Assembly (NCBI GenBank): GCA_011364925.1
Contig: RDOA01000001.1
Span: 127,128-191,127 of the forward strand
DNA length: 64,000 bases
Source of the DNA: Promethearchaeota archaeon
GTDB taxonomy: Archaea > Asgardarchaeota > Lokiarchaeia > Sigyniarchaeales > SOKP01
Direction of reading: 5' to 3'
In this document: piece after piece, positions 23,400-52,570 of the stretch
Position numbering within the stretch: position 1 is the first letter of the stretch
How the letters are laid out: each line of letters begins with the position of its first letter
Position numbers and translations under genes: made by a program
Notes under the pieces: model-generated
The model's input: only the letters and a program-made list of their open reading frames with translations
What the model was told of the DNA's origin: nothing
Databases searched by the model: none

Positions 23400-23408
23400 T
23401 TTAGATGG

Positions 23409-30868: not shown

Positions 30869-30950
30869 ATTTATTTTAAGCTACTTTAATAGAAATTAGG
30901 ATTGAATAATTATATTTACAATATTTTTTAATATTTGTTGCTATAAAACA

Positions 30951-31904: not shown

Positions 31905-31932
31905 AATTAGATCCTCTAATTTTTTTGTAAGG

Positions 31933-33800: not shown

Positions 33801-35312
33801 TTGAAAACGTACGATGTAATTTTCATTCATCCACCCCGACAGATAGAACTGGAGCAAAGCAAATTATTGAAATCTTATCGAAGTACATATATTTTCATTC
33901 CAATGGGAGTTTTTGCAATTGCTGATTTCCTTGAGAGAGAAGGTTTTGGAGTAGAAATAATAAATTATCCCTTAGAACAATATTTAAACCCAAATTGGTC
34001 GTTGAAAGATTACCTTCGCACGATTGATTTTAAAATATGTGGCATAGATTTACATTGGATACACAACGCTCATGGCGCTATCGAGATTGCTCGAACCGTC
34101 AAGGAAGTAAATCCTAACAGTAAAATAGTACTAGGAGGTTTTAGCGCGTCATATTTCCACGATCAGATTTTAAAATATTATGGAGTAATTGATGGTGTCA
34201 TAAAGGGAGAAGCTGAAGTTCCGCTCTTAGAATTCGCTCAAAAGACCGATCGAAATCAATCTTTAGATTCCATACCAAATTTATCTTTTCGGACAACTTC
34301 AAACCATATAAAATCAAATCCAATTAAATATGTAGCAAAATCTTTGGATGATCTTAATTTTTCGAATACCAAAATTCTCAAAAGTGCAAAACAGTACTTT
34401 GATTGCAGTAGAAAAATAATGGGAATCTCTTTCAATGTCCCAATTGGGAGGGGCTGTCCGTTTAATTGCCCTTTTTGTGGAGGTGGTCAAAGAGCCCTAC
34501 AAAGCGTGATTGGGCGAAGTAAGGTTGTTCTAAGGAATCCTGAAAAAGTTATTGAGGATATTACTACAATTGTAGATACTTATAATGTTCCCAGCTTATT
34601 TTTTGGGCATGGTTCCTATCCGGCTACTTTCAAATTTTGGAAAACTCTGTTTGGTCTAATACAAAAAGAAAAAATCGATATTGGAGGGGATCTAGAAATT
34701 TGGCGCTTACCCTTCCCAAAAGAGATGTGGCAAATATTCTATAAGACCTTTCCTCGTAGAAATTCATCAATTAGTATTTCTCCAAGAACATTATCTTCAA
34801 AAGTTCATCAAAGAGTAATGGAGATATGCGATCCAACCTTTAAATTTCCAAAAAATCAAATTGAAGGGCTCATAAAGAATGCAAATTTATATCAAAGAAC
34901 TTTAAGAATTTGGTTAACTGCCGGTTTTCCATTCCAATCCAGGCTGGATGTCCAAAAAGATTTTAACTTTGCTCTTAAATGTATGTATAAATATGGTAAA
35001 ACTAAATCAAAACCTATTTCAATAATGATTGAACCTTATCATATTTTCCCAGGTTCCCCCGCTTTTGAATCTCCTGAAACTTTTGGAATAAATCTAAATT
35101 ACAATTCTTTTTTACAACTTAAAGACTTTTTTAAAAATAACAAGATGTTATTTTTTTACAACGCAATAAATTACAATACAAATATCTTTTCGAGTGCAAC
35201 AATACGAAATTTGAATAAATTCTTATTTTTCAGCACAGCACTTACAATGATTACGACGGGGCATAAATCTCCCGAGAACAACTTTAAGGAAAAAAATGCT
35301 AAATATGAATAA
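33801..35312 (+). CDS. B12-binding radical SAM protein
   Basis: IPMGVFAIA, GIDLHW, LGGFSAS, GEAE, GRGCPFNCPFC, PGSP. Confidence 0.9.
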   Translation: MKTYDVIFIHPPRQIELEQSKLLKSYRSTYIFIPMGVFAIADFLEREGFGVEIINYPLEQYLNPNWSLKDYLRTIDFKICGIDLHWIHNAHGAIEIARTVKEVNPNSKIVLGGFSASYFHDQILKYYGVIDGVIKGEAEVPLLEFAQKTDRNQSLDSIPNLSFRTTSNHIKSNPIKYVAKSLDDLNFSNTKILKSAKQYFDCSRKIMGISFNVPIGRGCPFNCPFCGGGQRALQSVIGRSKVVLRNPEKVIEDITTIVDTYNVPSLFFGHGSYPATFKFWKTLFGLIQKEKIDIGGDLEIWRLPFPKEMWQIFYKTFPRRNSSISISPRTLSSKVHQRVMEICDPTFKFPKNQIEGLIKNANLYQRTLRIWLTAGFPFQSRLDVQKDFNFALKCMYKYGKTKSKPISIMIEPYHIFPGSPAFESPETFGINLNYNSFLQLKDFFKNNKMLFFYNAINYNTNIFSSATIRNLNKFLFFSTALTMITTGHKSPENNFKEKNAKYE

Positions 35313-35485: not shown

Positions 35486-36178
35486 ATGAATACTACTCAA
35501 AAAACTACCACATTGAAGATAATATCAATCGTCCCTTTTGTTCTTGCCTCTATTCCAATTGCATTTGTTTATTTCTTTTTAAGAGATTTACCGTTATTGA
35601 GTTCTTCATTCGTTGAGTATGTTCATGCGGGTAACTCGATTTTCTTCCCCTTTCTCTCATCTCACACAATTATCTTTCAATTTACTACTGGTCATTTAAT
35701 TGATATTATTTTAGTAGTTAATTTTGTTACATTACTCGAAAGAATAGGCTATTACTATTACCAAAAGGTTTGCTTAAAAAGAAATTTCTTAGAATTATCT
35801 TCAGAAACGGGATTTATTGAATTTAATAAAATACAAGAGGAATTGCAGCTAAACTCAGATTTCTTACTGAACCTGAAAGGAGATCCAAATCCTATTTTAA
35901 ATGAAGAGCTATTAAATCTTAAAGATGAGAAGAAAAGTAGAATCTATGCCAACGATCTCTTTTATAAAAAAGGAGATTATGTTAGTATAACAAGTTTGAA
36001 ACATACTTTCTTTAACTCTTTTCGAAGAATGCGAAAAAGAATTACTCACCATTATAAGTATTCTTCTATCTTTCTAAACTCTTCAACTTATTGTTTTTCT
36101 ACGAATTATTCCCCTCCTTTTATAAGAAATTGTGCATTTTCTAATCCTTACACGAATATACAAAAAGAGGAGGGATAA
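35486..36178 (+). CDS. Hypothetical membrane protein upstream of the rSAM/prenyltransferase operon
   Basis: 230-aa ORF in very AT-rich DNA with 2 hydrophobic segments; no recognisable family. Confidence 0.5.
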   Translation: MNTTQKTTTLKIISIVPFVLASIPIAFVYFFLRDLPLLSSSFVEYVHAGNSIFFPFLSSHTIIFQFTTGHLIDIILVVNFVTLLERIGYYYYQKVCLKRNFLELSSETGFIEFNKIQEELQLNSDFLLNLKGDPNPILNEELLNLKDEKKSRIYANDLFYKKGDYVSITSLKHTFFNSFRRMRKRITHHYKYSSIFLNSSTYCFSTNYSPPFIRNCAFSNPYTNIQKEEG

Positions 36179-36263: not shown

Positions 36264-37637
36264 GTGAAAATAATGGAATGGAATGAAGAAATTGAAGGTT
36301 TATATACGAAAATAACAGATATGACGCCTGAAACCTTCCGAGCCTCAGTTAAGCCGATGCTCCGCGAAGCCGCCGAAAAAACCGCTCGTTTAAGAAATTC
36401 TGGTTATGTAAGCAAGGATGACTTATTATCTGCTTTATTCGAGATTACACCACCAGCGTTTCAACCTACTGTTATAGAAGATCTAAAAACAATAGGAATC
36501 GATTCAGAGCGATACATACAATTATCATCAATTAGACAAGAATATGCTCGTACATGGGACGAAATTAGTGGTGCTTTTCTACCTGGTGTTTACCATTTTA
36601 CTATATATCTAACGGATCGATGCAACCAAAATTGTCTCCATTGTGCTGCTGCTGTGATGGAAAAACGTCCAGAATTTCCTACGGAAACCTGGATTGAAAT
36701 TATTGAGGATATAGAACAGAGCTTGCGAAAACAAGGTCGTCGAGGATGTTATATATGGTTTGGAGGAGAACCTACTATTCGCAAGGATCTTAAAGACTTA
36801 ATAAAATACTGTGGTGAAAAGGGCTATTATCAAGCACTTGCTACTAATGGAATTTTGTTTAATGATGAACTGGCGAAAATATGCGCAGAAGCTAAGATGA
36901 GTCATGTCTTTATTAGTTATGATAGTACAGATCCTAAGCGGGCCGCAAAAATTAGGGGGCATCCAAAAGCATACGAAGCGGCTGAAAAAGCGTTAGATTT
37001 AGCTGCAAAATATGGGCTTTTTACCATTGCTAATGTAACAGCACAAAAAGAGAATTTTGATGAATTAGATACATTAAGGGAATATTTTCAATCTAGGGGC
37101 GTAACTCCCTTTTACAGACCTCTAATCAAACAACGTTCAGCAGATTTAAATTGGGACGAAATCGGCTTAAATATAGATGAATATCGACAATTTTATGATT
37201 TTAGGAATAAACACGCTATTGAGGCTATCAGAAAAGGAGAAGCTTCTTCTCTCAATAAATTCTATACGTGGGATATGGTGCCATTTATGGAGTGTCCTAT
37301 GAATGATGAGGAAAGGACTGCAATCGAATGGGGTACAGGATGCCAAGCCTGCCGTTCAATCTCCGGAATTGATACTAATGGAGATGTATTCCCTTGCGAT
37401 TATCCCTCTGATTTAATTTTAGGTAACATTCTTGAGCAAAGCTGGGGAGAGATTATGGAAACCGAAATGTTTAAAGCTATTAGAGATAGGCAAATAAAAG
37501 GAAAATGTTCTACTTGCCATCATCTTGACATGTGCGGAGGAGGGTGTAGAGTTCATGCCGAAAACGAAACTGGTGATTTTTTAGCTTCTCTTCCGTTTTG
37601 CTGGCATAAAATTGATCATAAACATGAAAATTGTTAA
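36264..37637 (+). CDS. Radical SAM/SPASM enzyme with an N-terminal DUF2621/PCP_red-like module
   Basis: CNQNCLHC, FGGEP; SPASM GCQAC..GDVFPC..CSTC..MCGGGCR..FCW; N-terminal MEW..P..FR..AAEK..TPPAFQ..EDLK..GID module; start may be ATG 36273. Confidence 0.92.
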   Translation: MKIMEWNEEIEGLYTKITDMTPETFRASVKPMLREAAEKTARLRNSGYVSKDDLLSALFEITPPAFQPTVIEDLKTIGIDSERYIQLSSIRQEYARTWDEISGAFLPGVYHFTIYLTDRCNQNCLHCAAAVMEKRPEFPTETWIEIIEDIEQSLRKQGRRGCYIWFGGEPTIRKDLKDLIKYCGEKGYYQALATNGILFNDELAKICAEAKMSHVFISYDSTDPKRAAKIRGHPKAYEAAEKALDLAAKYGLFTIANVTAQKENFDELDTLREYFQSRGVTPFYRPLIKQRSADLNWDEIGLNIDEYRQFYDFRNKHAIEAIRKGEASSLNKFYTWDMVPFMECPMNDEERTAIEWGTGCQACRSISGIDTNGDVFPCDYPSDLILGNILEQSWGEIMETEMFKAIRDRQIKGKCSTCHHLDMCGGGCRVHAENETGDFLASLPFCWHKIDHKHENC

Positions 37638-37652
37638 TTTTGGCGAATTTTA

Positions 37653-39059
37653 ATGGAATGGGAAAAAGAAACTGAAGTACTATTTAACAAAATAGTGGAA
37701 CAAATGCCTCAGGGTTTTCGACCATCCGTAGAACCTATGATTGTAAAAGCTGCTGAGAAGAGATGTCTTGAGCGAAACGGTGCCTATATCAATAATGCTG
37801 ATGTGGTTACAGGAATATTTGATATTATTCCTGAAGCATTTAAACCCATCATGGTTGAAGATTTAAAATCTTTAGATATTGATGTGGAACGCTATATTGA
37901 GCTTAAAGAAATTAAGGATAGATTAAAAGTAGAATGGGAAAAGCTTGAAAGAGGCTTTCATCCCGGAAACATACATTTCGCTATGTATGTTACCGATAAA
38001 TGTAATCAAAAATGCATACATTGTGCTGCAGATGATCAAATACCTCGGCCAGAATTATCCACCGAACAATGGTGTCAAATAATAAAAAATGTTGAAACAG
38101 GATTGCGAAATCAAGGTAGACACGCTTGTTTCGTTTGGTTTGGGGGTGAACCTACGTTGCGTAAAGATATCGGTGAGATTATGAAGTTTTGTAAGGAAAA
38201 TGATTATATCCACGCATTGATTACCAATGGAGTCTGCTTTGACGAAAAATTCGTTAAAATGTGCAAAGATAATAATATAAGTCACGTATTTGTAAGTTTT
38301 GACAGTACAGATCCAAAGAAAAATGACAAAATTCGTGGATTTTCTAATTCCTTAGACTATGCTAAGAAAGCTATAGATTTATGCTTAAAGTATGGAATTT
38401 TCGTGTGTTCTTCAATTACAATAATGAAACAGAATGTAGATGAATTAGAAGATTTAAAAGCGTTGTCTGAAAAATGGGGTTCGCAACCTTATTTCCGGTG
38501 TGTAGTTAAACAAAATCGAGCAGCAGAATTTTGGGACGAAATCGGTCTTAATACGGAAGAATATAAAAAAATGTACGATTTTAAGTACAAACACGCCATT
38601 GAAACAATAAGACAAGGTAAAGCGGGAACACTACCAGCTTATGAAATATACGATATGGTACCTTTTATGGAAAAGCCTAAAAACGATAAAGAAATGGCTG
38701 CAATTGAATGGGGGGTTGGATGCTTAGCTTGTCGAACTATGATGGGGATTGGCATTGATGGTACAATATACCCTGCGGGATATCCTACAACATTAACTCT
38801 TGGAAACGCACTTGTGGATAATTTCGAGGATATTTTAAATTCGCAGTTGTATAAAGACATTCGGGATAGAAAGAAGATTAACGGTAAATGTGCTTCTTGC
38901 CATCATTTAGAGTATTGTGGGGGCGGATGTCGTGTAACTGCTGAATACATTACTGGTGATTTTTTCGGATCCTTCCCATTTTGTTGGCATGAAAACGATC
39001 AGGAGCATACATCTAAAGCTGAAAGCATAAAGACAGAAGAAACTGAAATAATTGAATAA
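37653..39059 (+). CDS. Radical SAM/SPASM enzyme, paralog 2, with an N-terminal DUF2621-like module
   Basis: CNQKCIHC, FGGEP, GCLAC..CASC..YCGGGCR..FCW; colinear with 36264. Confidence 0.92.
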   Translation: MEWEKETEVLFNKIVEQMPQGFRPSVEPMIVKAAEKRCLERNGAYINNADVVTGIFDIIPEAFKPIMVEDLKSLDIDVERYIELKEIKDRLKVEWEKLERGFHPGNIHFAMYVTDKCNQKCIHCAADDQIPRPELSTEQWCQIIKNVETGLRNQGRHACFVWFGGEPTLRKDIGEIMKFCKENDYIHALITNGVCFDEKFVKMCKDNNISHVFVSFDSTDPKKNDKIRGFSNSLDYAKKAIDLCLKYGIFVCSSITIMKQNVDELEDLKALSEKWGSQPYFRCVVKQNRAAEFWDEIGLNTEEYKKMYDFKYKHAIETIRQGKAGTLPAYEIYDMVPFMEKPKNDKEMAAIEWGVGCLACRTMMGIGIDGTIYPAGYPTTLTLGNALVDNFEDILNSQLYKDIRDRKKINGKCASCHHLEYCGGGCRVTAEYITGDFFGSFPFCWHENDQEHTSKAESIKTEETEIIE

Positions 39060-39095
39060 AAATAAATGATTAAAATCTAAAGAGGCGGGATTAAA

Positions 39096-40511
39096 ATGCG
39101 TGTACTTATTGTGTCTGGAAGCAGAGAGATTGTACATGTTATGGTTCCCCCTATAGGTGAAGCATATCTCGCAGCTTATCTTATAAAACAGGGACACGAT
39201 GTTAAAATACTTGATTTAACCCTTAGTGCTGATTATAAACATGATCTCGAAAAAGCCATTAGTTCTTTTAATCCCCAAATAATTGGGCTGTCTATACGAA
39301 ATATTGACTCGACAACATATCCTGGAAATTTATTTTTTTACTTACCTGTTAAGAATATTGTTTTGTATATTAAAGAGCTAGTTGAGCCTCAGGTTCCAGT
39401 TATATTAGGCGGTTCAGGATTTTCTATTTTTTCTGAAGAAATCCTTAAAGATTTAAATCACAATTTTGGCGTTGTTGGTGAAGGTGAATACGCATTTGCC
39501 GAAATTTTGAAATACATTGCTGATGGTAGAGATCCAAGAGAAGTTGAAAAGGGTATTTGTTTTGTCGATAATAATGGAGTTTATCATCAAAAACCTCCTT
39601 GGCATGTAGAAAACTTAGATGATTTACCTTTTCCTATACGAGATTTAATTGAAAACGATGCCTACTTTATCGACCCATTGAAAAAGTCTGGAACCTATTG
39701 GGGGAATATACAAACAAAGCGGGGCTGTTCTATGAATTGTATTTATTGCAGTTATCGATATGTTGAGGGATCGTATCCACGCTATCGTTCCCCTAAAAAA
39801 ATTGCCGAAGAGATTGAGTTAATGGTAAATAATTATGGAATTAAGAATATTTTTATTGTTGATAGTGTTTTTAATTTAGATTACGATCACGTTCAAGATA
39901 CTTGCAAAGAAATAATTAAAAGTAATGTGGATGTTAAATGGGGCGCAAACTATGCACCGAGCAAAAATTTTATTAATTTAATGCCACTCATGAAAGAAAG
40001 TGGTGCAGTGCATTTAGCAACTGGGATTGAGTCATTATCAGAAGAAATGTTGAAAAATATGCACAAAAATCGATCCCCAGACGATGCAATTCTTACTTCA
40101 CAAAAATGTATTGAGTTAGAGATTGAACAACTCATGCATATGATTGTTGGAGGTCCTGGTGAAACTCTAGAGACGATAAAAGCCTCCTTTAATCAATTAG
40201 AAACTATTAAGAGTTTTAATGGAGATTTATGGCAAGGGGATGGAGATGTATTGGTCTTTATAGGAATGAGAATCTACCCCCATACCCCTCTACAACTTAT
40301 TGCCGAACAAGATGGAGTAATTCAAATTGGTGAAAATTTGTTGAAACCTAAATTTTATATATCTCCCAAAATTAAAGAAGCAGATTTATTTAAGTTAGTC
40401 AGAGAATATGGTAAATCTAATCCAAGATGGATGATGCCAGGATTAGGTTTTAATAATCCAGATGGATTTGCTGAAATGAGCCAAGTACAATTTGCAATGT
40501 ACCAAAACTAA
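39096..40511 (+). CDS. B12-binding radical SAM protein, probable C-methyltransferase (TsrM / lipid-biosynthesis B12-rSAM-like)
   Basis: PPIGEAYL, LSIRNID, LGGSGFS, GEGE, IQTKRGCSMNCIYCSY..EG, GGPGET, GMRIYPHT. Confidence 0.88.
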   Translation: MRVLIVSGSREIVHVMVPPIGEAYLAAYLIKQGHDVKILDLTLSADYKHDLEKAISSFNPQIIGLSIRNIDSTTYPGNLFFYLPVKNIVLYIKELVEPQVPVILGGSGFSIFSEEILKDLNHNFGVVGEGEYAFAEILKYIADGRDPREVEKGICFVDNNGVYHQKPPWHVENLDDLPFPIRDLIENDAYFIDPLKKSGTYWGNIQTKRGCSMNCIYCSYRYVEGSYPRYRSPKKIAEEIELMVNNYGIKNIFIVDSVFNLDYDHVQDTCKEIIKSNVDVKWGANYAPSKNFINLMPLMKESGAVHLATGIESLSEEMLKNMHKNRSPDDAILTSQKCIELEIEQLMHMIVGGPGETLETIKASFNQLETIKSFNGDLWQGDGDVLVFIGMRIYPHTPLQLIAEQDGVIQIGENLLKPKFYISPKIKEADLFKLVREYGKSNPRWMMPGLGFNNPDGFAEMSQVQFAMYQN

Positions 40512-40552
40512 AATATGAAAAAAATATAAAAAAAGAACGAGGATAAAATAGA

Positions 40553-41725
40553 ATGGAATGGCAACCAGAAGTTGAACAACTCTTTGAGAGTATTGTATTA
40601 GGAGTTCCTGAAATGGTAAGACCTGCAGTAAAACCCGCGCTTTTTGAGGGTGCAGAAAAGAAATGTATGGAACGAAATGGTAAAAAAGTAGCTGAAGTGG
40701 ACTTGATTGTCGCTTTGTTTGAAGTAACACCCCCAGCTTTTCAACCGACAATGATTGAAGATTTGAAAAAACATGGAATAGATTATAATAGATATTTAGC
40801 AAAAGTACAATCAGAGTTTAAGTTGCATACCGATATTAATCAACTAGTAAAAGATATAATAAAAATTTCCGAATTCACGGGTGTACGAAGCAATGAAGAA
40901 GCAATCCGGAAGGGAATAAAAGCTTACGAAAAATTTTTTGCCGGAGCTCCTCTATCTATCAGAACTACTACAAAACCTAAAGAACGAAGGGATGTTGCGG
41001 CAAGATACGTAGAATTTTTTATTCCACATAACCCAGATCCCTATACAACAGCTATTAATAAAGGTATTTTGGTAAATGATGGGCATCCTATTCACGATAT
41101 GATTGTGGAAGCGATAAATACTTTCGAAATTATGGGTTATGGTGTTGATATTGATGCTAGTAGTGGATTATCTAAGATCTGGCCGTTTGTGGTTCCAGGT
41201 TCAATCGATCCTATCTTCGCTATGAAGTCAATACCAAGCAGTTTTAAAGGTTATAGAGATTACTTTGATAAACATAAATTAACAGCATTTAGTCTTTTTG
41301 CGTTTGATTTTTTGCATAATACAATTAATATTTATTTTATGTTAAAACAACCATTTAAATCATCCTATGAAAGTTGTGTTAGTCTTGTTGAAGATTTAGG
41401 GTTTAAAGTAGCATCTGAAGAAGCGATGAAAGGTTGTGTAGAAGCAGCGCATCTTAACTTTACTTTTAGTTGGAATTCAGATAAAATCGAAAGATTGTGC
41501 TTCGGCATAACATGTAACGATCCAAGCGAAGTTCCTATACACTTGCACCCATTAATAAAAGAATTTGTTGAAAAAGCTCCTTTACAGAGTGATTCAAGAA
41601 AATTCATTTGGGGGGTAACCTTTACGAATAATGGACTTTATTATAAAATCGAAAATGATTATAACGGGGCGATGGTGGACTTCTTACAAATGGGATGTAA
41701 AGCTGGATTAGATTATTACCAATGA
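40553..41725 (+). CDS. ABBA-type soluble aromatic prenyltransferase (CloQ/NphB, PTase_Orf2-like) with an N-terminal DUF2621-like module
   Basis: DPYTTAINKGIL..GHPI, YGVDID...GLSKIWPF, FAFDF.H.TINIYF, FTFSWNS.KIERLCF, GLYYKIENDY follow the order of CloQ/NphB motifs. Confidence 0.82.
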   Translation: MEWQPEVEQLFESIVLGVPEMVRPAVKPALFEGAEKKCMERNGKKVAEVDLIVALFEVTPPAFQPTMIEDLKKHGIDYNRYLAKVQSEFKLHTDINQLVKDIIKISEFTGVRSNEEAIRKGIKAYEKFFAGAPLSIRTTTKPKERRDVAARYVEFFIPHNPDPYTTAINKGILVNDGHPIHDMIVEAINTFEIMGYGVDIDASSGLSKIWPFVVPGSIDPIFAMKSIPSSFKGYRDYFDKHKLTAFSLFAFDFLHNTINIYFMLKQPFKSSYESCVSLVEDLGFKVASEEAMKGCVEAAHLNFTFSWNSDKIERLCFGITCNDPSEVPIHLHPLIKEFVEKAPLQSDSRKFIWGVTFTNNGLYYKIENDYNGAMVDFLQMGCKAGLDYYQ

Positions 41726-41763
41726 ATTTATATCAATAAAACTTAACTGGACTATTGTGAAAT

Positions 41764-42915
41764 ATGAGGTTTATAATAGACGGAGAGTATCAAAAAGAAT
41801 TGATTTCTCGAATTAGTAGAGAAAATTTACCAGTTTCACATATTATTGTCCATGTTCCCCTAAATCCCTTCGGTAATGGATCAATTTTCCTTCCTAAAGT
41901 TTTACCTAATTTAGAAGAATTCGAAAAATATACAAAACTAATTCAAGATTATGGAATCACACCTATTGCAGGTATCGATTCTACTTGTCAAGGAAATTTA
42001 GAAGCACATATCAAGCAAAACTCAGCATACAAGGTTCTAATTGGTGAACTCAAAGATTTAGGTTATAAGGAAATACTGGTCTCCTCGCCAAATAATGTCG
42101 GATTTCTTAAAGCCAATTTTCCTACGATACGAATTTATCTTGCTTATTCACAATACGTAACATCTCTAAATAGAGCAAAGATCTTCTTCGAATTAGGAGC
42201 TGATTCTATTACGCTGCATCCAGATGTAATTAGAAGTTTTTATGCATTAGAGAATTTTATCAAATTAAAAGAAAAGTGGGATAGCTCTTGTAACGTTGAA
42301 TATATTTTGCCATTAAATATTGGGTGCAATTGGGGCTGTATTCAGTGGTTTCAACACCATAATTTGCAAAGCCATCGAACAATAGCCTCTCCTTTGTCAT
42401 CGGAGCAACAAAATAATTCAGACATAGAAGATGCATTTGATTACCCTCTTCTTTATTGTTGGAGAAAACGACTTGAAAAACCCGTTAACTTTTTAAAAGC
42501 AGGGTGGATTTCTCCTGATAATATTGAATTATATGAAAATATTGGTTATTCTACATTCTTATTGCTAACAGGAGGATTTTCAGTAGATAAAATTGTGAAA
42601 ATCGTCCAATCATATACCAATAAATCTCTTAATAATAGTTTTAATGAGTTTTTAAATATCCCTCAACCATATGGTGCTTATTGGTCAAAAGATGAGTTAT
42701 CAAATTCGATATTACAGCTTGAACCTGAAGTCATTAAGGAGTTTAACAAGAATTTCCCGTATTATGTTACTTATCTTGATGAACGGGAGATAAACCATCA
42801 TTGTTTAAAATACGTTAGCAAACTCCCAAATGGAAGCTTTTCTGATAAGCAAAAACTGATTCAGTTAATCACTAATAAATTAAATGAAATTGAAAAAGGA
42901 GCAGTAAATAGGTGA
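41764..42915 (+). CDS. U32 peptidase-family protein, divergent
   Basis: Colinear with the two downstream U32 proteins (IDSTCQGN, GADSITL, NIGCNWGC..HH..QSH, YC, WISP) but lacks the KIxGR motif. Confidence 0.7.
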   Translation: MRFIIDGEYQKELISRISRENLPVSHIIVHVPLNPFGNGSIFLPKVLPNLEEFEKYTKLIQDYGITPIAGIDSTCQGNLEAHIKQNSAYKVLIGELKDLGYKEILVSSPNNVGFLKANFPTIRIYLAYSQYVTSLNRAKIFFELGADSITLHPDVIRSFYALENFIKLKEKWDSSCNVEYILPLNIGCNWGCIQWFQHHNLQSHRTIASPLSSEQQNNSDIEDAFDYPLLYCWRKRLEKPVNFLKAGWISPDNIELYENIGYSTFLLLTGGFSVDKIVKIVQSYTNKSLNNSFNEFLNIPQPYGAYWSKDELSNSILQLEPEVIKEFNKNFPYYVTYLDEREINHHCLKYVSKLPNGSFSDKQKLIQLITNKLNEIEKGAVNR

Positions 42916-42919
42916 TTTA

Positions 42920-44971
42920 ATGCGTATTTCCTTAGCATGTAATTGGAAATTAGATTTACTAAAACTATTAGAAACTGAAGATAGTATTAAATCGGTCGTC
43001 CATGATTTATACGGTACTTATGATCTTAGTTTTACAGGATCCGGTCGTCCATTTCTATTAATGCCTCATAAGGACAAATATGAAATCGAACATTATATCA
43101 ATAGGGTGCATGATTTAAATTTAAAATTCACTTGGTTATGGAATGGCAGTTGCCTTGGATATTATAAATTCAATTCTGAAGAACAAACAAAGGCATTAAA
43201 AGAACTTGATTGGCTTGACGACCTTGGTGTGGAGTATCTTACTGTCTCAGATCCATACCTTGCAAGGTTTGCAAAAATTCATCACCCAAAATTAAAACTT
43301 AAGGTTTCGGTGATAGCGGAAGTCAATTCTCTCTCCCGTTCGCTAGATTGGGAAAAGATTATTGGATCGAATGGAGTGCTGACCTTATCTATAATGCTTA
43401 ATAGAAACTTTCCACTTTTAAAGGAAATTAAAAAAACAGTGAAATGTGATATTGAATTGCTCACTAATGATTGCTGTCTCTTTGAATGTCCATTCCGCTT
43501 TTTTCATTATACTGAATGCTCCCATGCGAGTCAAACTCACGATATTTTAGAAGGATACTATAATGATTGGGCAACTATAGCCTGTCAAAATCAAAAATGT
43601 TTCAATAAGGAACAAGTTCTTATAAGTAGATGGATTCAACCGTCTGATCTTGATAAATATATTGAAATTGGAATTGACTATTTTAAGATCTCCGGTCGAA
43701 GATATGGAACTAAATGGTTATATCGAACATTAAAGGCATATAGTCAAAAATCATACGATGGTAATCTTGGAGAGATTTTTAATGGATACTCTTTTGTATC
43801 TGATCCTTTGGAACTTGCTGGTGCTCAGTTTTCCGAATTTACAGCAAAACAAGAAAAGATGGGAGGAAATCCAGATGACATGGGGATTATGCTGAGTGTG
43901 CCAGATTTTGATGCTGAATTAAGAGCTGATAAATTAAACACATTTATTGAGTATTTTCCATTTCAAGGAGCAAAGTGTAATGATAACTGTGGTATTTCAT
44001 GTAATTACTGTCATCAAAAGGCGGAAGATGCTTATTTCGTTCCCTCAAAACAAAATGCAGAATCTTATAGAAACTATATGCTATATCTTTTAAATTATCT
44101 AAACTCTGGTGATATGTTTTTACCAGAAGAACAGAGAAAAAATGAAAAACCTATTAATAAAATTGAATCAGATACCTATATTGGACTTCCTTGGATTCCT
44201 AAAGCAAAAAAATTTTTTGAGGAGGCTATGCTAATAGTTCCAATGGAAATGCAAAAAGCCGCAAAAAAGGGTATAGGGTATACTGCTGAAAGAACAGCAG
44301 AAAGAAAAGGATTAAGTCATGTGGATCAAGAGTTAATAACATCAATAATTATCGAGTTGGTCCCTCAACCGTTTAAACATGATGTAATTGATTTTTTAAT
44401 CGAAAAAAATATCGATCTCTCACTTTTTATGAGTGATGATGAAATAAAATACGCGAAATCTTTACCTTATGGAACAGAATTGATGGCTCAAAGAGCAAAG
44501 GAAAAAGGTCTCGTAATAGAAAATTCAAATTTTATTGAAAATGAGAAAAAAATAGAAAAAAATATTGAGGTGAAAATGAATTTGAACACAAAAGAAGAAT
44601 GGGAAGCGTATCTTACACGATTTATGAAAGCTTATAATGAATTACCTGATTTAGCTTCGATGTTAGAACCTGTTGCTCCGTTATTATTTCAATACGAAAT
44701 AACTGACAGACCTGAGATGAATTACTGGCAAAGAATTGAAAAAAACAGAATGGATTGGGGTATGGGAGAATATTCTGGTCCAGAAGTGCCAAAAATAATT
44801 CATAGAACCGATTTTGAGACGATGAAAAAAGTAAACTCAGGAGAATCTGATCCGATCCAAGCGACAATGGCAGGTACATATGTAGTTGATGGAGATCCTA
44901 CCAAATTAATGGCTTGTGCACCGCTATTGCCTCTTAATCCCAAAGCTCATGCAAAAGCGATGCAACAGTAA
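42920..44971 (+). CDS. U32-family Fe-S protein fused to a DUF2621-like module and a C-terminal SCP2 lipid-binding domain
   Basis: GSGR, NDCCLFECPFR..H...SH, FKISGRR, CNDNCGISCNYC; internal LPW..P module; SCP2 signature LFQYEI...G..DPIQATMAG.Y.VDGD. Confidence 0.85.
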   Translation: MRISLACNWKLDLLKLLETEDSIKSVVHDLYGTYDLSFTGSGRPFLLMPHKDKYEIEHYINRVHDLNLKFTWLWNGSCLGYYKFNSEEQTKALKELDWLDDLGVEYLTVSDPYLARFAKIHHPKLKLKVSVIAEVNSLSRSLDWEKIIGSNGVLTLSIMLNRNFPLLKEIKKTVKCDIELLTNDCCLFECPFRFFHYTECSHASQTHDILEGYYNDWATIACQNQKCFNKEQVLISRWIQPSDLDKYIEIGIDYFKISGRRYGTKWLYRTLKAYSQKSYDGNLGEIFNGYSFVSDPLELAGAQFSEFTAKQEKMGGNPDDMGIMLSVPDFDAELRADKLNTFIEYFPFQGAKCNDNCGISCNYCHQKAEDAYFVPSKQNAESYRNYMLYLLNYLNSGDMFLPEEQRKNEKPINKIESDTYIGLPWIPKAKKFFEEAMLIVPMEMQKAAKKGIGYTAERTAERKGLSHVDQELITSIIIELVPQPFKHDVIDFLIEKNIDLSLFMSDDEIKYAKSLPYGTELMAQRAKEKGLVIENSNFIENEKKIEKNIEVKMNLNTKEEWEAYLTRFMKAYNELPDLASMLEPVAPLLFQYEITDRPEMNYWQRIEKNRMDWGMGEYSGPEVPKIIHRTDFETMKKVNSGESDPIQATMAGTYVVDGDPTKLMACAPLLPLNPKAHAKAMQQ

Positions 44972-45001
44972 GAATAAAATCAAAAATTAGGTGGATAATC
45001 A

Positions 45002-46408
45002 GTGAAACTACATGTAGCTACAAATTGGGATTTAGATCTAATCGATAATTTAGCTCAATTCCCCGTATCTGGATTATATGGCGTCTCAGACCACTCAATA
45101 GTTGGAGGGGGTCGTCCATCTTTCTTGCTACAACAAATCTCAGAAGAAAGAATCGCGGAATATATAAAAAAAGTTCACGAAAACAATATGGAGTTTTCCT
45201 ATCTATTAAATGCGCCCTGTATGAACAATATGGAATACGATCCGCATTATCATAAAGAACTTATTGAGTACTTGCAGTGGATTAGTGATATCGAAGCAGA
45301 TAGCGTAACAGTAACTATCCCATTTTTAATACAGCTCATCAAGGAACAATTTCCAAGGCTAAAAATCCGAGTTTCTACAATAGCTCATGTGAATAGTGTT
45401 AATCGCGCAATGTTTTACGAATCTCTTGGAGCAGATGAAATTACGCTTGATGTTATGATAAATCGTGACTTTAAAACTTTAGAACAAATTCAAAAAGCTG
45501 TGAAGTGTAAACTAATTGTCCTCTTAACAGATGGATGTTTATTTCAATGTCCTTTTAGATATTATCATTACAATACTTTAGGACACGCTTCGCAAACTTA
45601 TCAACAATTTGAACGTAATTATGTTGACACATGTATCTTAAACTGCAGTATTATCAAATTTTCTGATCCAACAGAAGTTATAAAAGCAAGGTGGGTCCGA
45701 CCTGAAGATTTAACTCACTACGAGGCAATTGGAATCGAGAATTTTAAAATTGCGGGGCGTCGTATGTCAACCCAGTGGATTACTCAATCTGTGAAAGCCT
45801 TCTCTTCGCGAAAATATAATGGGAATCTTGTTGATATAATTCAAGGCTTTTCAATGTCACATGGTGGTTTAGAACAAAAGGATCCAAATGTAAAATTAAG
45901 TGAAACGATCGGAAAGGAGTCTAAATCAAAACTCGTAATTGATAATACCAAACTAGACGGATTTATAGACTTTTTCAAAAAGCAAAATTGTATAGCGATG
46001 TGTAACGCATGTTCGTATTGTGAAGAATGGGCGAAAAAAGCAGTAATATTAAATGAAGAAGAATCTCAGAGATATGTAGAATCGATAAAGGGGTATATGA
46101 ACGATATTTTATCCAGTCGCGAATTTGGTCTTGCAGCCGCTAAACCAAAGGAAAAAGTAAAATCAGGTTTAGAATGGGATAGTGAAACTCAGAGAATATT
46201 TGATGATCTTATATTACTCTCCCCGCCTCAGTTTCAACAAATGGCGAGAATGGCAATATCATCGCTTGCTGAAGAGAAAGCCAAGAAAAGAGAATCAGAA
46301 GTAATTGAAAACCAAGATATAATCGATGCGTTCATAGAAGGAACTCCCGGAGCGTTTCAAGCTGATATGAGAGAAGGTTTAAAAAAACACGGGCTTTTAG
46401 AAAAATAA
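45002..46408 (+). CDS. U32-family Fe-S protein with a C-terminal DUF2621-like module
   Basis: GGGRP, LNAPCMNN, DGCLFQCPFR..H..GH, FKIAGRR, CIAMCNACSYC; C-terminal LEW..PPQF..AEEKA..TPGAFQ..GLKKHG. Confidence 0.87.
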   Translation: MKLHVATNWDLDLIDNLAQFPVSGLYGVSDHSIVGGGRPSFLLQQISEERIAEYIKKVHENNMEFSYLLNAPCMNNMEYDPHYHKELIEYLQWISDIEADSVTVTIPFLIQLIKEQFPRLKIRVSTIAHVNSVNRAMFYESLGADEITLDVMINRDFKTLEQIQKAVKCKLIVLLTDGCLFQCPFRYYHYNTLGHASQTYQQFERNYVDTCILNCSIIKFSDPTEVIKARWVRPEDLTHYEAIGIENFKIAGRRMSTQWITQSVKAFSSRKYNGNLVDIIQGFSMSHGGLEQKDPNVKLSETIGKESKSKLVIDNTKLDGFIDFFKKQNCIAMCNACSYCEEWAKKAVILNEEESQRYVESIKGYMNDILSSREFGLAAAKPKEKVKSGLEWDSETQRIFDDLILLSPPQFQQMARMAISSLAEEKAKKRESEVIENQDIIDAFIEGTPGAFQADMREGLKKHGLLEK

Positions 46409-46430
46409 ATTTCTTTTTTCTTTTTTTATC
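46409..46430 (+). terminator. Oligo-T archaeal terminator of the 36264-46408 operon
   Basis: TTTCTTTTTTCTTTTTTT immediately after the stop codon. Confidence 0.5.
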
Positions 46431-46605: not shown

Positions 46606-47178
46606 ATGTTCTGTCCGAATTGTGGGGAAAAGTTAGACAACCCTAACCAAAAGTTTTGTGCACATTGTGGAAGTGAAATTCAAGTTACTCCTAGCTCTGA
46701 GGCTTTTGAAGGATATAATGCAACACAAACACCAGTTGTGAAAACATCCTCACCACCACCAGTTCCAGCTACTCCCGTTTACGATGTAAAACCAGTTAAA
46801 CCAAAAGGAACAGGCTCTTATTCAAGAAAAAGTCTTGCCTACGCCTTAATTTGGCCAATCTTTTTCGTTATTGCTTTTTATTTAGGATTTATATTTATGA
46901 TATTTCGTTCATTTTCATATTCTCCCTATATGCCAAGAAATCCTTTTTTATGGATAGTTCCTTTCGTATTGCATCTTGTGAGTCTTCTCTTCAGCATCGT
47001 TTCTAAGGTTAATAGCAGTAAAGCTCGTATCTACGAAGATAGAAACGGCCTTCAACAAGCTGGCAGTATTATAAGTGTATTTGGAATTGTTCTGAATGCG
47101 ATATTTTTAGTGATAGTTCCAATTATGATGGCAATAGGTATAGCAACTATGGGTTATTTATACGATCCCTTTATATAA
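46606..47178 (+). CDS. Zinc-ribbon plus Pro-rich linker plus 3-TM membrane protein
   Basis: MFCPNCGEKL..FCAHCG, PPPVP linker, three TM helices. Confidence 0.82.
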   Translation: MFCPNCGEKLDNPNQKFCAHCGSEIQVTPSSEAFEGYNATQTPVVKTSSPPPVPATPVYDVKPVKPKGTGSYSRKSLAYALIWPIFFVIAFYLGFIFMIFRSFSYSPYMPRNPFLWIVPFVLHLVSLLFSIVSKVNSSKARIYEDRNGLQQAGSIISVFGIVLNAIFLVIVPIMMAIGIATMGYLYDPFI

Positions 47179-47226
47179 AATTTAGATTAGAAGAAAATAA
47201 AATAAGAATTAATTGTATGTGATATT

Positions 47227-47791: not shown

Positions 47792-49108
47792 CTAATATAT
47801 CCAATCAATAAGAGACGAACAACTTTTTCCTTGAGCGTTCTTCAATCTACCTAAGATTCGAAAAGTAGCTCCTTTGTAACCACACTCCGGGCATCTGCTG
47901 CCCGAGACTTGTTCTACTATGTCGTCTACTAAAACAGCTTGATTAATTGAGCCATTAACCCCATAAGGTGTAATAACCTCTAAAAGACCTTCTTCTTCCT
48001 CCTTTACAGCATCTAGATTTTCAAGATCTCTTACAATTATCCGAGATGTATTAGGGCAATGGAGTAAAAAATCTTGATATTTCTCAGACCAATGCCCTCC
48101 AAAAAGAGTGGGTCCTTCAGTAAAAGCATAAATATCTCGAATATCCGTTGATTTTATGTTAAACACTTTTTCGTAAGATTCTATGAATTTGCTTTTATTC
48201 ACAGTGGCCATCTTCGCTTCACCCTTAACACCATCCCACCCGCCACCTCCACATCCAACAATAGCTTTTCCATCGAGATCTATAAAGACATTCTCTTTTA
48301 ACAGCCTTTTTTCAAACATATTATTCATTAAAAGCGGACTTCCGCCGAACAAAACTTTACTCGCTTCAGTATCTTTCCAATAACCTGTTTTTAGGATTCT
48401 TCTAATAATCTTCAACATTTTAGAGACATCAAGCACAAAACCACCCTTTAACGAAAAAGTTGATATAATTGCCCAGATTGTCTTTAACCATTTCATTTTT
48501 ACTAAGTATTCCTCGTGGCCATAAAATTCCCATGGTTTGTTCATACAAGCTGTAAAGTATCGAGTTTTATCAATGTATTCAAATCCTTCAGCACTTCTTC
48601 GTGCCATTATTGACATGAATAATCGATCCGGTGAGAAATTAAACACTACTCCTCTTTTTGAACCTGATTTTAATTCCTCCCATTTAAAGAATTCCGTAAA
48701 TACCTTAATTGAATTGTATTGAATTTGATCAAAATCTTCTAATGTTCGAGGAACAATTGAAGGATCTCCTGTTGTTGAAGAAGAACACGAATAAAGCGCG
48801 ATCTTCTCCTGTGGAACTTTTAATAAATGTAATGTTCGATTTCCAGATTTTTTATAAGTTTCTGTTGGAATGTATGGAATTGTTTCTAAACTTTTAATAG
48901 AAAGTTCATCAGGAACCGTAAAATCAAACTTCTTACACAGATTTTTTCTGTAATACTCACAATTGGTATAGGATAAATCAATTTGATGTAACACTTCTTT
49001 ACAAAACTCATCATCTGTAGATTCTCGCGAAGTAAAGTTAAAATATTTCGTTTTCAAGTCTTCCGGTAAGAGATCATGAAATTTAAGAAACAAAATACAT
49101 ACCTCCAA
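47792..49108 (-). CDS. LuxE-like acyl-protein synthetase (ANL superfamily)
   Basis: IPYIP...YK, SSSTTGDPS, GGGGWDG, DIYAFTE, GLLEVITP, DDI, RILGR...GKSCS with a terminal Cys as in LuxE. Confidence 0.78.
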   Translation of the reverse strand: MEVCILFLKFHDLLPEDLKTKYFNFTSRESTDDEFCKEVLHQIDLSYTNCEYYRKNLCKKFDFTVPDELSIKSLETIPYIPTETYKKSGNRTLHLLKVPQEKIALYSCSSSTTGDPSIVPRTLEDFDQIQYNSIKVFTEFFKWEELKSGSKRGVVFNFSPDRLFMSIMARRSAEGFEYIDKTRYFTACMNKPWEFYGHEEYLVKMKWLKTIWAIISTFSLKGGFVLDVSKMLKIIRRILKTGYWKDTEASKVLFGGSPLLMNNMFEKRLLKENVFIDLDGKAIVGCGGGGWDGVKGEAKMATVNKSKFIESYEKVFNIKSTDIRDIYAFTEGPTLFGGHWSEKYQDFLLHCPNTSRIIVRDLENLDAVKEEEEGLLEVITPYGVNGSINQAVLVDDIVEQVSGSRCPECGYKGATFRILGRLKNAQGKSCSSLIDWIY

Positions 49109-49187
49109 AATTTATTTATGTATTATTTTATTCCAAATAAAATTGATTGATATAAAATGTTAAATAAAAAAGTAATAAAAAATATTA

Positions 49188-50540
49188 TTACATATTAGAT
49201 AAAGCTAGTATTTCTGCTTCTTCGCGTTCTAATAGCATTGGTGTTTTCTCCCAACTTATCTCTTTAGGAAGTTTAAATTGGCGTAAAAACATGTAAAGAT
49301 GGATAAATCCGCTTATGAGGAAATAAAATATAAGCGAGTAGTGCTTATCACAATACTTTCTTATTGAGTTAAATATGTATCCAAACTGAAAAAATATACA
49401 CGACAAAGTCCATATTAGCATGTAATGTTCTCCGGTTAAAAATTGAAATATGGCAAATATTATCTCTATTGGAAGCCAAGTATCCATATTTCCGAGCGCC
49501 ATCATGGTCATATTTCTCGCGATAATTAACTTTTTACCATCTTTATATTCGCTCTTCATTGCCATTAATTGAGGCATATCAAATACATATCCCGCAAGCC
49601 AACGAGTGCGTTGCTTTACCAAAATATCCCAGCTATTTGGAACATACTCATAGACCTTAGCTTTCGGTGAAAATCGAATAAGTACACCATCTAAATTCAA
49701 AAGTACGGAGAGATAAAGGTCTTCCGTCATTGAATCTTCATTAAATCCCCCATATTTCTCAAGGTACTTAGTTCTAACCGCGAAATTCCGTCCAAAAGAA
49801 TAAGCAGAAGATCCTAACCTATTTTTAACTTCGAATAACAAGCCACCACCAGAAACCATGCCGTAATCCAAAAATATCCCTCTCGTCAACATATTGTCTT
49901 TCCAGTTCTTAACGAGTACAGGACCAATGACTGCTTCTGTTTTTTCTTTATGGAATGGAGAAATCAAGTTTTTAAGTGAATCAGGTTTTAAAATGCAACC
50001 TGAATCGTAGAGTATTACAATATCATTTTTTACATGTTCTAATCCATAATTGAGCGCAGGAGGTTTTCCTTTTTTAGGTAAATCCTTTGATAATACGATT
50101 ATGTCGATATCCTTATGTTCCTCCGAAAAGCTTGTTGCAAAACTTGTTGTATCGTCAGTAGAACCACTAGTTATTACTATAACTTGCATCTTATCTTTAG
50201 GGTAATCTGATTCAACAATTGAGTTCAAGGTTCTTTCCAACAACACCTTTTCGTTTTTACAAGCAATCATAATGCTAATGTTTTCATAATGCGTAATTTT
50301 AGGTTTGTACCCGCTCCCAAAGGATGCGAAGAAATGAACTCCATAATAAAGAACAAAACCTAACAACATAAATAATCCCACTAACGGGAACACAAACCAC
50401 CAATAGGTTAAAGGCGCTGCTAAAAAGGTATCAATCGAATCTTTTATCCCCGAAGTTAAATAAGGGGGAAAATAGATGTATAATAGAACTAAAAATACTA
50501 ACCAAATAGACCCGTACAACAAATATCTATACAATTTCAT
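49188..50540 (-). CDS. Membrane glycosyltransferase family 2 (cellulose-synthase-like)
   Basis: GSTD, GKPPALN, TEDL, QRTRW (QxxRW), WEKTP; TM helices at both ends. Confidence 0.9.
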   Translation of the reverse strand: MKLYRYLLYGSIWLVFLVLLYIYFPPYLTSGIKDSIDTFLAAPLTYWWFVFPLVGLFMLLGFVLYYGVHFFASFGSGYKPKITHYENISIMIACKNEKVLLERTLNSIVESDYPKDKMQVIVITSGSTDDTTSFATSFSEEHKDIDIIVLSKDLPKKGKPPALNYGLEHVKNDIVILYDSGCILKPDSLKNLISPFHKEKTEAVIGPVLVKNWKDNMLTRGIFLDYGMVSGGGLLFEVKNRLGSSAYSFGRNFAVRTKYLEKYGGFNEDSMTEDLYLSVLLNLDGVLIRFSPKAKVYEYVPNSWDILVKQRTRWLAGYVFDMPQLMAMKSEYKDGKKLIIARNMTMMALGNMDTWLPIEIIFAIFQFLTGEHYMLIWTLSCIFFQFGYIFNSIRKYCDKHYSLIFYFLISGFIHLYMFLRQFKLPKEISWEKTPMLLEREEAEILALSNM

Positions 50541-50565
50541 TTTACATCAACTCATTTTTTAATTA

Positions 50566-51498
50566 TTATGCTTCTGCTTTCTCAAGTTTCCTTAAGTTTT
50601 TCCAGATGTAGTTTGCAAAGAGAATAATTGATAAAACCATAATAACTAGTAAACTGGCTTGATAGATGAACATACTCCATGTAATTGTCCAAGCGTGAGA
50701 ACTGTTCCATATTGTTGCAGAAGGATTCACTAAGTAAGTCAAATATACAGTAAAGCTAGAGACACCATACATTACAAAAAATGTAGCACTAACAATTACT
50801 CGTGTAATTCTCTCTCCAATGAAAGGTTTTGTCTCAAGCAATCCCAAACCTTCGTGTCTCGCTCTCATATACTCGTAAATAAATATGAGAAATATGTTTG
50901 TCCACACCATCCAAGTAAAGTCAAGCCCGAAAGAAGGAAATACTAATAAACTCGTAGGAACGAAACATACCAGCATCAAAATATCACTTATTCTATCCAA
51001 GATATTGTCCAACCACGCACCAGTTTTTGATTTAATATCCAATAATCTCGCGATTGCTCCATCTATTCCATCACCAATACCTGTAGCTAGCACAAGTACA
51101 GCGAGAAGGAAAAACCACGATCCATAAAAAGGTTGTTGAGTAATGAGATCAAGCGTATGACCGGTACTTGCCATTATTACTCCCCAGAAAATGAAAAAAG
51201 AAGCGATCAGGTTTATGTACGATGCCTTATTCGGACTTATGCCCAATTTTATAAAGAGTTTAGCCCCTCTATAAGTTATAGGCATGTAAAGTTTTCCTGC
51301 GGGATCTTTACTCATTTTTTCAAACTGCTGCTCTACTTTATGGGCTTGCCCGTGATCCTTAAGCCAATCTTTTATGAATTCGTCGCATGTCATAAATTCT
51401 CTTTTTGGTTTCTCCTTAAAGACACTGCTAAGAAATATGACTATTAAGAAGAAAAGTAATACCAATGGAAATACTAATGTAAATAATAGTTCTGTCAT
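50566..51498 (-). CDS. CDP-alcohol phosphatidyltransferase family protein
   Basis: SPN, DGIDGAIAR...GAWLDNILDRISD signature, YMRAR, ER. Confidence 0.92.
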   Translation of the reverse strand: MTELLFTLVFPLVLLFFLIVIFLSSVFKEKPKREFMTCDEFIKDWLKDHGQAHKVEQQFEKMSKDPAGKLYMPITYRGAKLFIKLGISPNKASYINLIASFFIFWGVIMASTGHTLDLITQQPFYGSWFFLLAVLVLATGIGDGIDGAIARLLDIKSKTGAWLDNILDRISDILMLVCFVPTSLLVFPSFGLDFTWMVWTNIFLIFIYEYMRARHEGLGLLETKPFIGERITRVIVSATFFVMYGVSSFTVYLTYLVNPSATIWNSSHAWTITWSMFIYQASLLVIMVLSIILFANYIWKNLRKLEKAEA

Positions 51499-51703
51499 AA
51501 TGCTCGCCTAAATTATTACATTTGATATTTTTATTAAAATTATTTAAAAATATAATAGTAGTTAGAATTTAAATTATATTAAATTTATTTAATCGTAAAC
51601 CCTTGCATTCTTATTCTCTTTAAAGGGTTTTAATTTTAATATTGGACTCCTAAAAAAATATATAATTAACAAAGCAATAAATTAAATAGAGGTAATTGTA
51701 ATA

Positions 51704-52531: not shown

Positions 52532-52570
52532 ATATGGAACTGTTTTTTTTATTCTTTTTTTATCTTTATA

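Follow-up and report, generated by a model that had tools for sequence, protein, structure and literature searches.

What would a lokiarchaeon build with an aromatic prenyltransferase that is encoded in one run of genes with U32 proteins and radical S-adenosylmethionine (SAM) enzymes? The question is raised by positions 36264–46408 of the stretch of contig RDOA01000001.1 analysed here (64,000 nucleotides, hereafter the window), where seven open reading frames (ORFs), all on the forward strand and separated by gaps of 15, 36, 41, 38, 4 and 30 bp, encode two SPASM-type radical SAM enzymes (rSAM-A and rSAM-B), a B12-dependent radical SAM enzyme, an ABBA prenyltransferase (the 40553 protein, named from its first position) and three U32 proteins (U32a, U32b and U32c). 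An earlier note on this DNA had listed the same co-oriented genes, gaps and closing T-tract, all of which were matched exactly on recheck, and the enzyme families that it named were borne out by domain searches (two SPASM, one B12 radical SAM, PTase_Orf2 and U32). We consider it moderately probable that the operon serves, in modular fashion and without O2, to tailor a lipophilic aromatic or heteroaromatic compound of the speciality metabolism of Lokiarchaeia. It is a real, conserved and apparently undescribed combination of known enzyme families; as the earlier note had supposed, no description of an Asgard aromatic prenyltransferase with U32 proteins, or of U32 proteins in biosynthetic clusters, was found in the literature searched, outside which most subscription papers lay.

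Conservation and gene content of the operon

The operon is not a chance assembly, because more than 20 other genomes show this gene order, a co-conservation that had been put forward as a check. The prenyltransferase is encoded in 19 of 301 Asgard genomes (17 of 68 in the host family and 9 of 27 in the host genus) and in none of 14 control genomes, and a search of 14 genomes of family f2 did not find the cluster. Records L037 and L043 are titled Hermodarchaeota and are contigs of G024 and G019, which are placed in the host genus; these labels overstate the taxonomic spread of the cluster.

Across 31 loci, fetched from related genomes through the prenyltransferase or through the 85-residue module described below and yielding counts that are not a statistical test, gene order is conserved and gene content is variable. 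All 24 prenyltransferase loci have rSAM-A, rSAM-B and SCP2, and rSAM-B occurs in none of the seven loci without a prenyltransferase. The B12 enzyme is present in 18 of the 24 and the U32a and U32b genes in 12, always together; the earlier description of three U32 proteins is true of this operon, but only 12 of the 24 loci have three. The most persistent enzyme is U32c (27 of 31 loci), and the membrane ORF just upstream of the operon is present in 28, loci without the prenyltransferase included. This ORF keeps a hydrophobic N-terminal stretch of 100 residues in the alignment (with GxS-FxP and GHLID motifs), has a variable C-terminal half, and gave no match in Pfam, NCBIfam or the Atlas.

No ABBA gene was found in G246, G189 and G292, genomes that are 98–100% complete and keep SCP2 and U32c together with rSAM-A or the B12 enzyme. 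The flanks of locus L063 recur in G246 (100% complete), where only the upstream B12 enzyme, the membrane ORF, rSAM-A, SCP2 and U32c lie between them, and G292 and G189 are similar; module-only stubs of 64–83 residues in G017, G189 and G249 are marks of earlier deletions. Since the core exists without the ABBA enzyme, prenylation would be a decoration and not a UbiA-like entry step, unless those loci are decaying, and the earlier proposal of an ABBA enzyme in place of UbiA is weakened by them. The idea that the rSAM-A of the reduced loci is a chimera of A and B was tested and rejected. A paralogous cluster (L030:5561-14742, L048:15954-20355) consists of the membrane ORF, a module-bearing radical SAM enzyme (35%), a divergent SCP2, a GlcD-like flavin adenine dinucleotide (FAD) oxidoreductase, a CCG Fe-S protein and U32c. 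In three genomes (L039:12077-14432, L029 and L043) the operon is directly followed by genes for an ACT-domain protein, a 250-residue protein and actin.

The ABBA prenyltransferase

By sequence and predicted structure the 40553 protein is a true PT-barrel enzyme with a Mg-independent diphosphate site. It matches PTase_Orf2 (PF11468; Pfam E = 5.6e-48), its model (predicted local distance difference test, pLDDT, 94.8) has the ten antiparallel strands of the fold, and Foldseek aligns that model with AmbP3 (E = 2e-28, template modelling (TM) score 0.92, root-mean-square deviation 2.2), so that the barrel predicted by the earlier note is upheld. Seven residues invariant across 108–112 homologues (R137, R151, K208, N259, Y261, R314 and K365) align with the diphosphate site of EpzP (R49, R62, K117, N172, Y174, R232 and K283), and the Mg switch position is occupied by Arg and not by Asp, which is the mark of Mg-independent members (PMC3485228). 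In the acceptor pocket, Y220 of EpzP is replaced by N302, and R267 of EpzP has an equivalent in only 31% of the homologues. A LigM match on this protein was dismissed as noise. By analogy with its relatives, the enzyme would prenylate an aromatic acceptor. Characterised ABBA prenyltransferases come only from bacteria and fungi; those of the CloQ/NphB family use C5 or C10 donors, and some ABBA-fold enzymes take C20–C25 donors (PMC7253389).

Outside the Asgard archaea, module-bearing prenyltransferases are stand-alone genes of anaerobic bacteria. In Acetivibrio clariflavus DSM 19732 (L067:10001-11716) and in L070:710-3699 such a gene adjoins a type-1 isopentenyl diphosphate (IPP) isomerase gene scoring above cut-off, a neighbourhood that hints at short donors of the size of dimethylallyl diphosphate (DMAPP). 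The A. clariflavus pair, from an anaerobe that is in culture, is in itself a putative two-gene unit for prenylation that appears not to have been described. A quick tree put every module-bearing prenyltransferase into one group of 40 rows (support 88), and no donor or direction of transfer is therefore claimed.

The U32 proteins and the SCP2 domain

The Peptidase_U32 family (PF01136) scores above its cut-off in U32b and U32c and is not matched by U32a, which BLAST aligns with U32c at 23% identity (E = 4e-19); a Tox-HNH-HHH match on U32a (E = 2e-4, below cut-off) was dismissed as noise. Four aligned cysteines are invariant in all three proteins (C73, C179, C183 and C215 in U32c; C75, C188, C192 and C232 in U32a), and another motif of four cysteines is present in U32b and U32c, reading CX3CX2CX2C at residues 330–340 of the latter. 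The earlier note had equated these proteins and the SCP2 domain with UbiU, UbiV and UbiT, and this equivalence is weakened on three counts. The motif is CX6CX16CX38C in UbiU and CXnCX12CX3C in UbiV (PMC6747719), whereas U32c reads C73...C179-X3-C183-X31-C215 plus the tail, with the far-upstream cysteine and the CX3C pair alone recalling UbiV; the curated UbiU and UbiV models gave no match, U32c reaching only TrhP (25 bits against a cut-off of 534) and U32a and U32b nothing; and the genome holds at least nine other SCP2 genes. Judged by these motifs and models, the U32 proteins of the operon are not UbiU/UbiV, and the joint occurrence of U32a and U32b in 12 of 12 loci is only suggestive of a UbiU/UbiV-like pairing.

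Among characterised U32 relatives, prephenate serves to hydroxylate the ring of ubiquinone or bases in RNA; no in vitro assay exists for the family (PMC10990095). Chorismate synthase and chorismate mutase genes are present in the genome, so prephenate, the oxygen donor of UbiU/V, can be made here.

The lipid-binding SCP2 domain listed earlier among eight functions is indeed present, not as a separate gene but as the C-terminal part of U32b, so that eight functions reside in seven genes. Its Pfam score is 20.2 bits against a cut-off of 21.3; one homologue passes (25.7), and a profile of the homologues retrieves seven other SCP2 genes of the genome (best E = 7e-8). Where U32b is lacking, SCP2 is encoded by a separate gene of 128–135 residues that is 63–85% identical. 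Such a free SCP2 occurs in about half of the loci; in the rest, the domain is joined to U32b, a third SPASM enzyme or the prenyltransferase. Elsewhere in the genome there are three canonical U32 genes (C32:358-1895, C81:25873 and C29:51140), one of which adjoins an SCP2 gene on the opposite strand.

The radical SAM enzymes

rSAM-A and rSAM-B are paralogues with 49% identity. The CX3CX2C motif at residues 120–127 of rSAM-A and its cysteines 360, 363, 378, 415, 418, 424, 428 and 446 are invariant in 22–23 orthologues, and rSAM-B has one auxiliary cysteine fewer, that matching C378. AhbD, NirJ and MftC are the best curated matches of both, yet the scores are far below the cut-offs of the equivalog models (134–138 bits against 500 for AhbD; 106 against 265 for MftC). 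Beyond this distant likeness to AhbD, nothing supports the decarboxylation that had been assigned to these enzymes.

The B12 enzyme at 39096 has TsrM as its best solved relative (E = 3e-20) and scores 276 bits with TIGR04072 (cut-off 360) and 208 with BzaD (cut-off 450). In TsrM, an arginine lies below the cobalamin and a glutamate on the unique iron blocks radical chemistry (PMC8992657). The former, Arg69, aligns with R68, which is present in all 22 orthologues of the B12 enzyme; the latter, Glu273, is replaced in them by Val, Ile or Leu at position 258. Judged from these relatives, the enzyme is a probable ring C-methyltransferase.

A module shared by five of the enzymes

Five of the seven proteins share a module of 85 residues, which the earlier feature list, though right about the genes, had missed together with the upstream ORF at 35486–36178. 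The module is N-terminal on both SPASM enzymes and on the prenyltransferase, internal in U32b and C-terminal on U32c, and the five copies in the genome all lie within the operon. Its scores with DUF2621 and PCP_red in Pfam are 18–22 bits, below the cut-off of 27.7, and its model (pLDDT 91) has a TM score of 0.89 to free-standing DUF2621 proteins of the Atlas. VIA Z scores of 6.1 to the PCP_red-like structure 2l09 and 7.9 to the BchI lid are both in the range of common helical arrangements, and matches to histone-fold and AAA-lid structures were not accepted as homology. No likeness to PqqD appeared in any search made, and no mention of DUF2621 was found in the literature searched.

The module, present in 25 of 301 Asgard genomes, is mobile: the prenyltransferase carries it at the C terminus in G057, G060 and L064, G010 has it doubled, and a free-standing copy occurs in L064. 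Module-bearing pairs of U32 proteins of the same subfamily occur in NusG-led clusters that have many radical SAM enzymes of the B12 and HemN types and in which no prenyltransferase or SCP2 was seen in the 31 kb read. Its presence on bacterial prenyltransferases and U32 pairs shows that both enzyme types are general tailoring parts and that the module is older than the operon. Obligatory docking of module on module is not required, as one deltaproteobacterial genome has a single copy, on its prenyltransferase; a complex prediction for two copies scored 0.00, which counts neither way. Most likely the module binds a shared ligand or partner. The NusG/LoaP-led clusters, probably bacterial (L104:7868-21440, L108:1-21356, L106 and L107), encode two module-bearing U32 proteins and at least five B12 radical SAM enzymes, together with HemN-like and DUF512/PDZ radical SAM enzymes, a SAM decarboxylase and an export system.

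A proposed tailoring line

In the tailoring line that we favour, a core made up of the membrane ORF, the SCP2 carrier, U32c and usually rSAM-A would take up a lipophilic ring compound in the cavity of SCP2 and hydroxylate it with prephenate as oxygen donor. The ABBA cassette would attach a short isoprenyl chain (C5–C10, perhaps as long as C20) without Mg2+, and rSAM-B, the constant companion of the ABBA enzyme, might oxidise, cyclise or couple the prenylated product. The B12 cassette would methylate a ring carbon, the U32a/U32b pair would account for further hydroxylation, and the module would let the enzymes gather on one shared ligand or partner. Prenylation, ring hydroxylation, ring methylation and lipid carriage are here transferred from characterised relatives and appear plausible; the order of the steps, the SPASM reactions, the identity of the ring and the ligand of the module are guesses.

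Three independent enzyme types, namely an ABBA enzyme with an intact diphosphate site, U32 proteins and a TsrM/BzaD-like methylase, point to an electron-rich ring, and the occurrence of SCP2, free or fused, in all 24 prenyltransferase loci points to a hydrophobic substrate. The earlier claim that an aromatic, greasy substrate is handled without O2 is supported. The proposal also draws on the modularity of the loci, their patchy spread, the bacterial prenyltransferases beside IPP isomerase, and the bacterial U32 pairs in clusters unrelated to quinones. Several points weigh against it: the operon contains no gene for a ring precursor; the loci without a prenyltransferase may be decaying remnants; ABBA-fold enzymes also prenylate sugars and peptides (PMC7253389); and the loci compared are a chosen set from related genomes. 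Some apparent aromatic-precursor neighbours proved to be an aldolase, a subtilase, an ERCC4 nuclease and a flavoprotein that flank the locus by descent.

Alternative products

That the operon makes a membrane redox carrier, either a new quinone or a methanophenazine-like compound, with the ABBA enzyme replacing UbiA and the U32 and SCP2 proteins acting as UbiU, UbiV and UbiT, seems unlikely to us, even though its chemical logic would be that of anaerobic ubiquinone synthesis (PMC6747719) and the phenazine prenyltransferase EpzP is a close solved relative of the 40553 protein. None of the five UbiA-family genes of the genome is a clear UbiA, MenA or MqnP, and no MqnA/D was found; however, one of the five (PRK12871 type), of unassigned function, could serve elsewhere. 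The UbiD of the genome sits in the mevalonate operon, yet GlcD/HdrD-like and heme-O-synthase-like genes are present, and the paralogous cluster with its GlcD-like and CCG proteins also speaks for a carrier. Against such a carrier, the cluster is absent from most complete genomes of the host genus, where its patchiness, together with the C5/C10 donors of the CloQ/NphB family (PMC7253389), weakens the respiratory quinone considered in the earlier note; the variable gene content would alter the structure of the carrier; the U32 proteins do not behave as UbiU/UbiV in motif and model searches; and deep-branching Asgards have been modelled as ferredoxin/hydrogenase based (10.1101/2024.07.04.601786). 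No ring-precursor enzyme or long-chain polyprenyl donor was found in the operon or its recurrent neighbours, although unlinked genes could supply them. On host contig C67 (L073:1507-7453), a heme-O-synthase-like gene lies with GlcD-like and HdrD/TfrB-like genes and a gene for a 509-residue membrane protein without an NCBIfam family, which is odd for a presumed anaerobe. A bolder form of the carrier proposal is less probable still: a new prenylated, hydroxylated and methylated membrane electron carrier, made without O2 by U32 proteins of a new subfamily and a soluble ABBA enzyme that are held in a complex by the DUF2621-like module, acting as a portable docking or ligand-binding tag.

It is likewise improbable that the operon tailors the core or head group of an archaeal membrane lipid or glycolipid, with U32 and radical SAM enzymes hydroxylating, methylating and cross-linking it and the ABBA enzyme further prenylating an acylated or aromatic head group. 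SCP2 and the membrane ORF belong to the core and the prenyltransferase does not; in NCBIfam the B12 enzyme best matches a family of lipid biosynthesis; and genes for a CDP-alcohol phosphotransferase, glycosyltransferases, a LuxE-like ligase, a sulfotransferase and B12 radical SAM enzymes surround the operon here and in other genera. The phosphotransferase, glycosyltransferase and LuxE-like ligase are near the cluster in 13, 11 and 10 of the 31 loci, respectively, from several genera, and in L033 the membrane ORF and U32c have a LuxE-like gene between them. However, several loci (G017, G019 and G060) lack such neighbours, characterised U32 enzymes act on sp2 ring carbons, and no match above cut-off was found to Tes (61 bits against 450) or to other archaeal lipid enzymes.

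Modification of a peptide, protein or tetrapyrrole, in which Trp or Tyr would be prenylated, methylated, hydroxylated and cross-linked and the module would be a substrate-recognition element (like the RiPP recognition element, RRE, of ribosomally synthesised and post-translationally modified peptides), is very improbable: one module on three unrelated folds does suggest a common substrate, indoles (AmbP1/3, TsrM) or peptides (PqqE) are the substrates of the closest solved relatives, the SPASM enzymes best match heme enzymes of the AhbD/NirJ type and PCP_red occurs on tetrapyrrole reductases, but no locus contains a small conserved precursor ORF, the module showed no likeness to PqqD in the searches made, the AhbD scores are far below cut-off, and SCP2 is left unexplained.

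Layout of the window and neighbouring genes

The features of the locus are collected in Table 1. Gene spacing and the Shine-Dalgarno-like motifs (GGAG, GAGG or AGGTG) that precede several starts suggest that the operon is co-transcribed; four DNA runs that span it piecemeal have no bearing on expression. Scans for sigma-70 promoters and hairpin terminators gave no more than chance, with models unsuited to an archaeon. The GC content of the operon (0.346) is close to that of the genome (0.330), which is 100% complete by marker genes.

Table 1. Positions, in the window, of the operon genes, module copies and adjoining features
Feature	Position	Strand	Remarks
B12-binding radical SAM enzyme (TIGR04190/Ta0216-like)	33801..35312	+	frequent upstream companion, probably own transcript
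Conserved 230-residue membrane ORF	35486..36178	+	directly upstream; no known family; likely first operon gene
rSAM-A	36264..37637	+	module (residues 4-89), radical SAM and SPASM; full auxiliary cysteine set
rSAM-B	37653..39059	+	module (residues 1-86), radical SAM and SPASM
B12-dependent radical SAM enzyme, TsrM/BzaD-like	39096..40511	+	probable ring C-methyltransferase; optional gene
ABBA (CloQ/NphB-family) aromatic prenyltransferase	40553..41725	+	module (residues 1-86) and PT-barrel (residues about 93-380)
Module, type copy	40553..40810	+	N-terminal on prenyltransferase
Other module copies	36273-36530, 37653-37910, 44186-44443, 46169-46405	+	on rSAM-A, rSAM-B, U32b and U32c
U32a	41764..42915	+	divergent U32-fold Fe-S protein; no module, no C-terminal cluster motif
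U32b	42920..44971	+	U32, four-cysteine tail, module (residues 423-508) and SCP2 (residues about 555-683)
U32c	45002..46408	+	U32, CX3CX2CX2C tail (330-340) and C-terminal module (residues 390-468)
T-tract	46409..46430	+	17 T in 22 nt after the last stop; like an archaeal terminator, presumed function
CDP-alcohol phosphotransferase, family-2 glycosyltransferase, LuxE-like acyl ligase	47792..51498	-	convergent associated trio

The upstream B12-binding radical SAM enzyme (273 bits with TIGR04190, cut-off 500) is near the cluster in 21 of the 31 loci and is elsewhere paired with U32c alone. The operon lies within an island of about 35 kb (window 18700-33069 and 47792-53713) that contains at least five further B12-type radical SAM genes, a MSMEG_0568-like radical SAM gene (52571-53713), and genes for glycosyltransferases, a polysaccharide deacetylase, a sulfotransferase, a hydrolase, a LuxE-like ligase and a CDP-alcohol phosphotransferase; the island may build a modified glycolipid. 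In the radical SAM ORF called at 19116 (window 18790-20264, +) the B12-binding domain stays open in frame for about 105 codons upstream of the first ATG, GTG or TTG, which indicates that the start is damaged or that its codon is unusual. Paralogous zinc-ribbon (MFCPxCG) membrane proteins (33148-33654, -; 46606-47787, +; 51704-52531, +) border the operon here and in many related loci. Elsewhere, the window encodes DnaJ-DnaK-GrpE (4979-9497), methylmalonyl-CoA mutase with MeaB (15478-18527) and a beta-helix/WD40 protein of 1185 residues (10764-14321).

Comparison with known systems

Very little is known of the speciality metabolism or lipophilic cofactors of Asgard archaea, and the operon offers several points of entry. 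Its soluble ABBA enzyme should be easily expressed, with a measurable range of donors and acceptors; its U32 proteins form an uncharacterised subfamily with two predicted Fe-S sites for studies of prephenate-dependent hydroxylation; it gives a first handle on DUF2621; the natural deletion variants suggest a testable order of steps; and its product is a candidate lipid biomarker for a sediment-dwelling lineage.

Each component has known counterparts from which it differs. AmbP1, AmbP3, FamD1, EpzP, NphB and CloQ share the PT-barrel at about 28–30% identity, with a diphosphate site that is Mg-independent as in EpzP, but the 40553 protein has an extra module of 86 residues and other acceptor-pocket residues. 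Enzymes of the AhbD/NirJ/MftC type have the same layout of radical SAM and SPASM domains with auxiliary cysteines, whereas rSAM-A and rSAM-B score about a quarter of the cut-off and carry the N-terminal module. TsrM and BzaD share the B12 and radical SAM domains and an Arg under the cobalamin in an RNxD motif; the enzyme described here is below the family cut-offs and lacks Glu273, so that its radical chemistry would not be blocked in the same way. DUF2621 (PF11084) and PCP_red (PF08369) resemble the module in helical fold and in the W...P...AE...P pattern, with free-standing relatives of 85 residues in bacteria, but the module scores below the Pfam cut-off and occurs five times in one operon, on enzymes of three folds.

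The closest likeness as a system is to UbiT/UbiU/UbiV (PMC6747719, PMC10990095), in which U32 Fe-S proteins likewise accompany an SCP2 domain; an apparently obligate pairing of U32 proteins (here U32a/U32b), the availability of prephenate and a fusion of SCP2 to U32 are also shared, a UbiT-UbiU fusion being known in anaerobic ubiquinone synthesis (PMC6747719). The U32 proteins of the operon differ from UbiU/UbiV in their cysteine motif, their extra four-cysteine tail and the DUF2621-like module, and the cluster, which is archaeal and patchy, has a soluble ABBA enzyme and three radical SAM enzymes in a setting without UbiA, UbiD/X or UbiE/G. The operon is not a member of the Ubi system, but its workings would resemble anaerobic hydroxylation of the UbiT/U/V type joined to ABBA and radical SAM tailoring.

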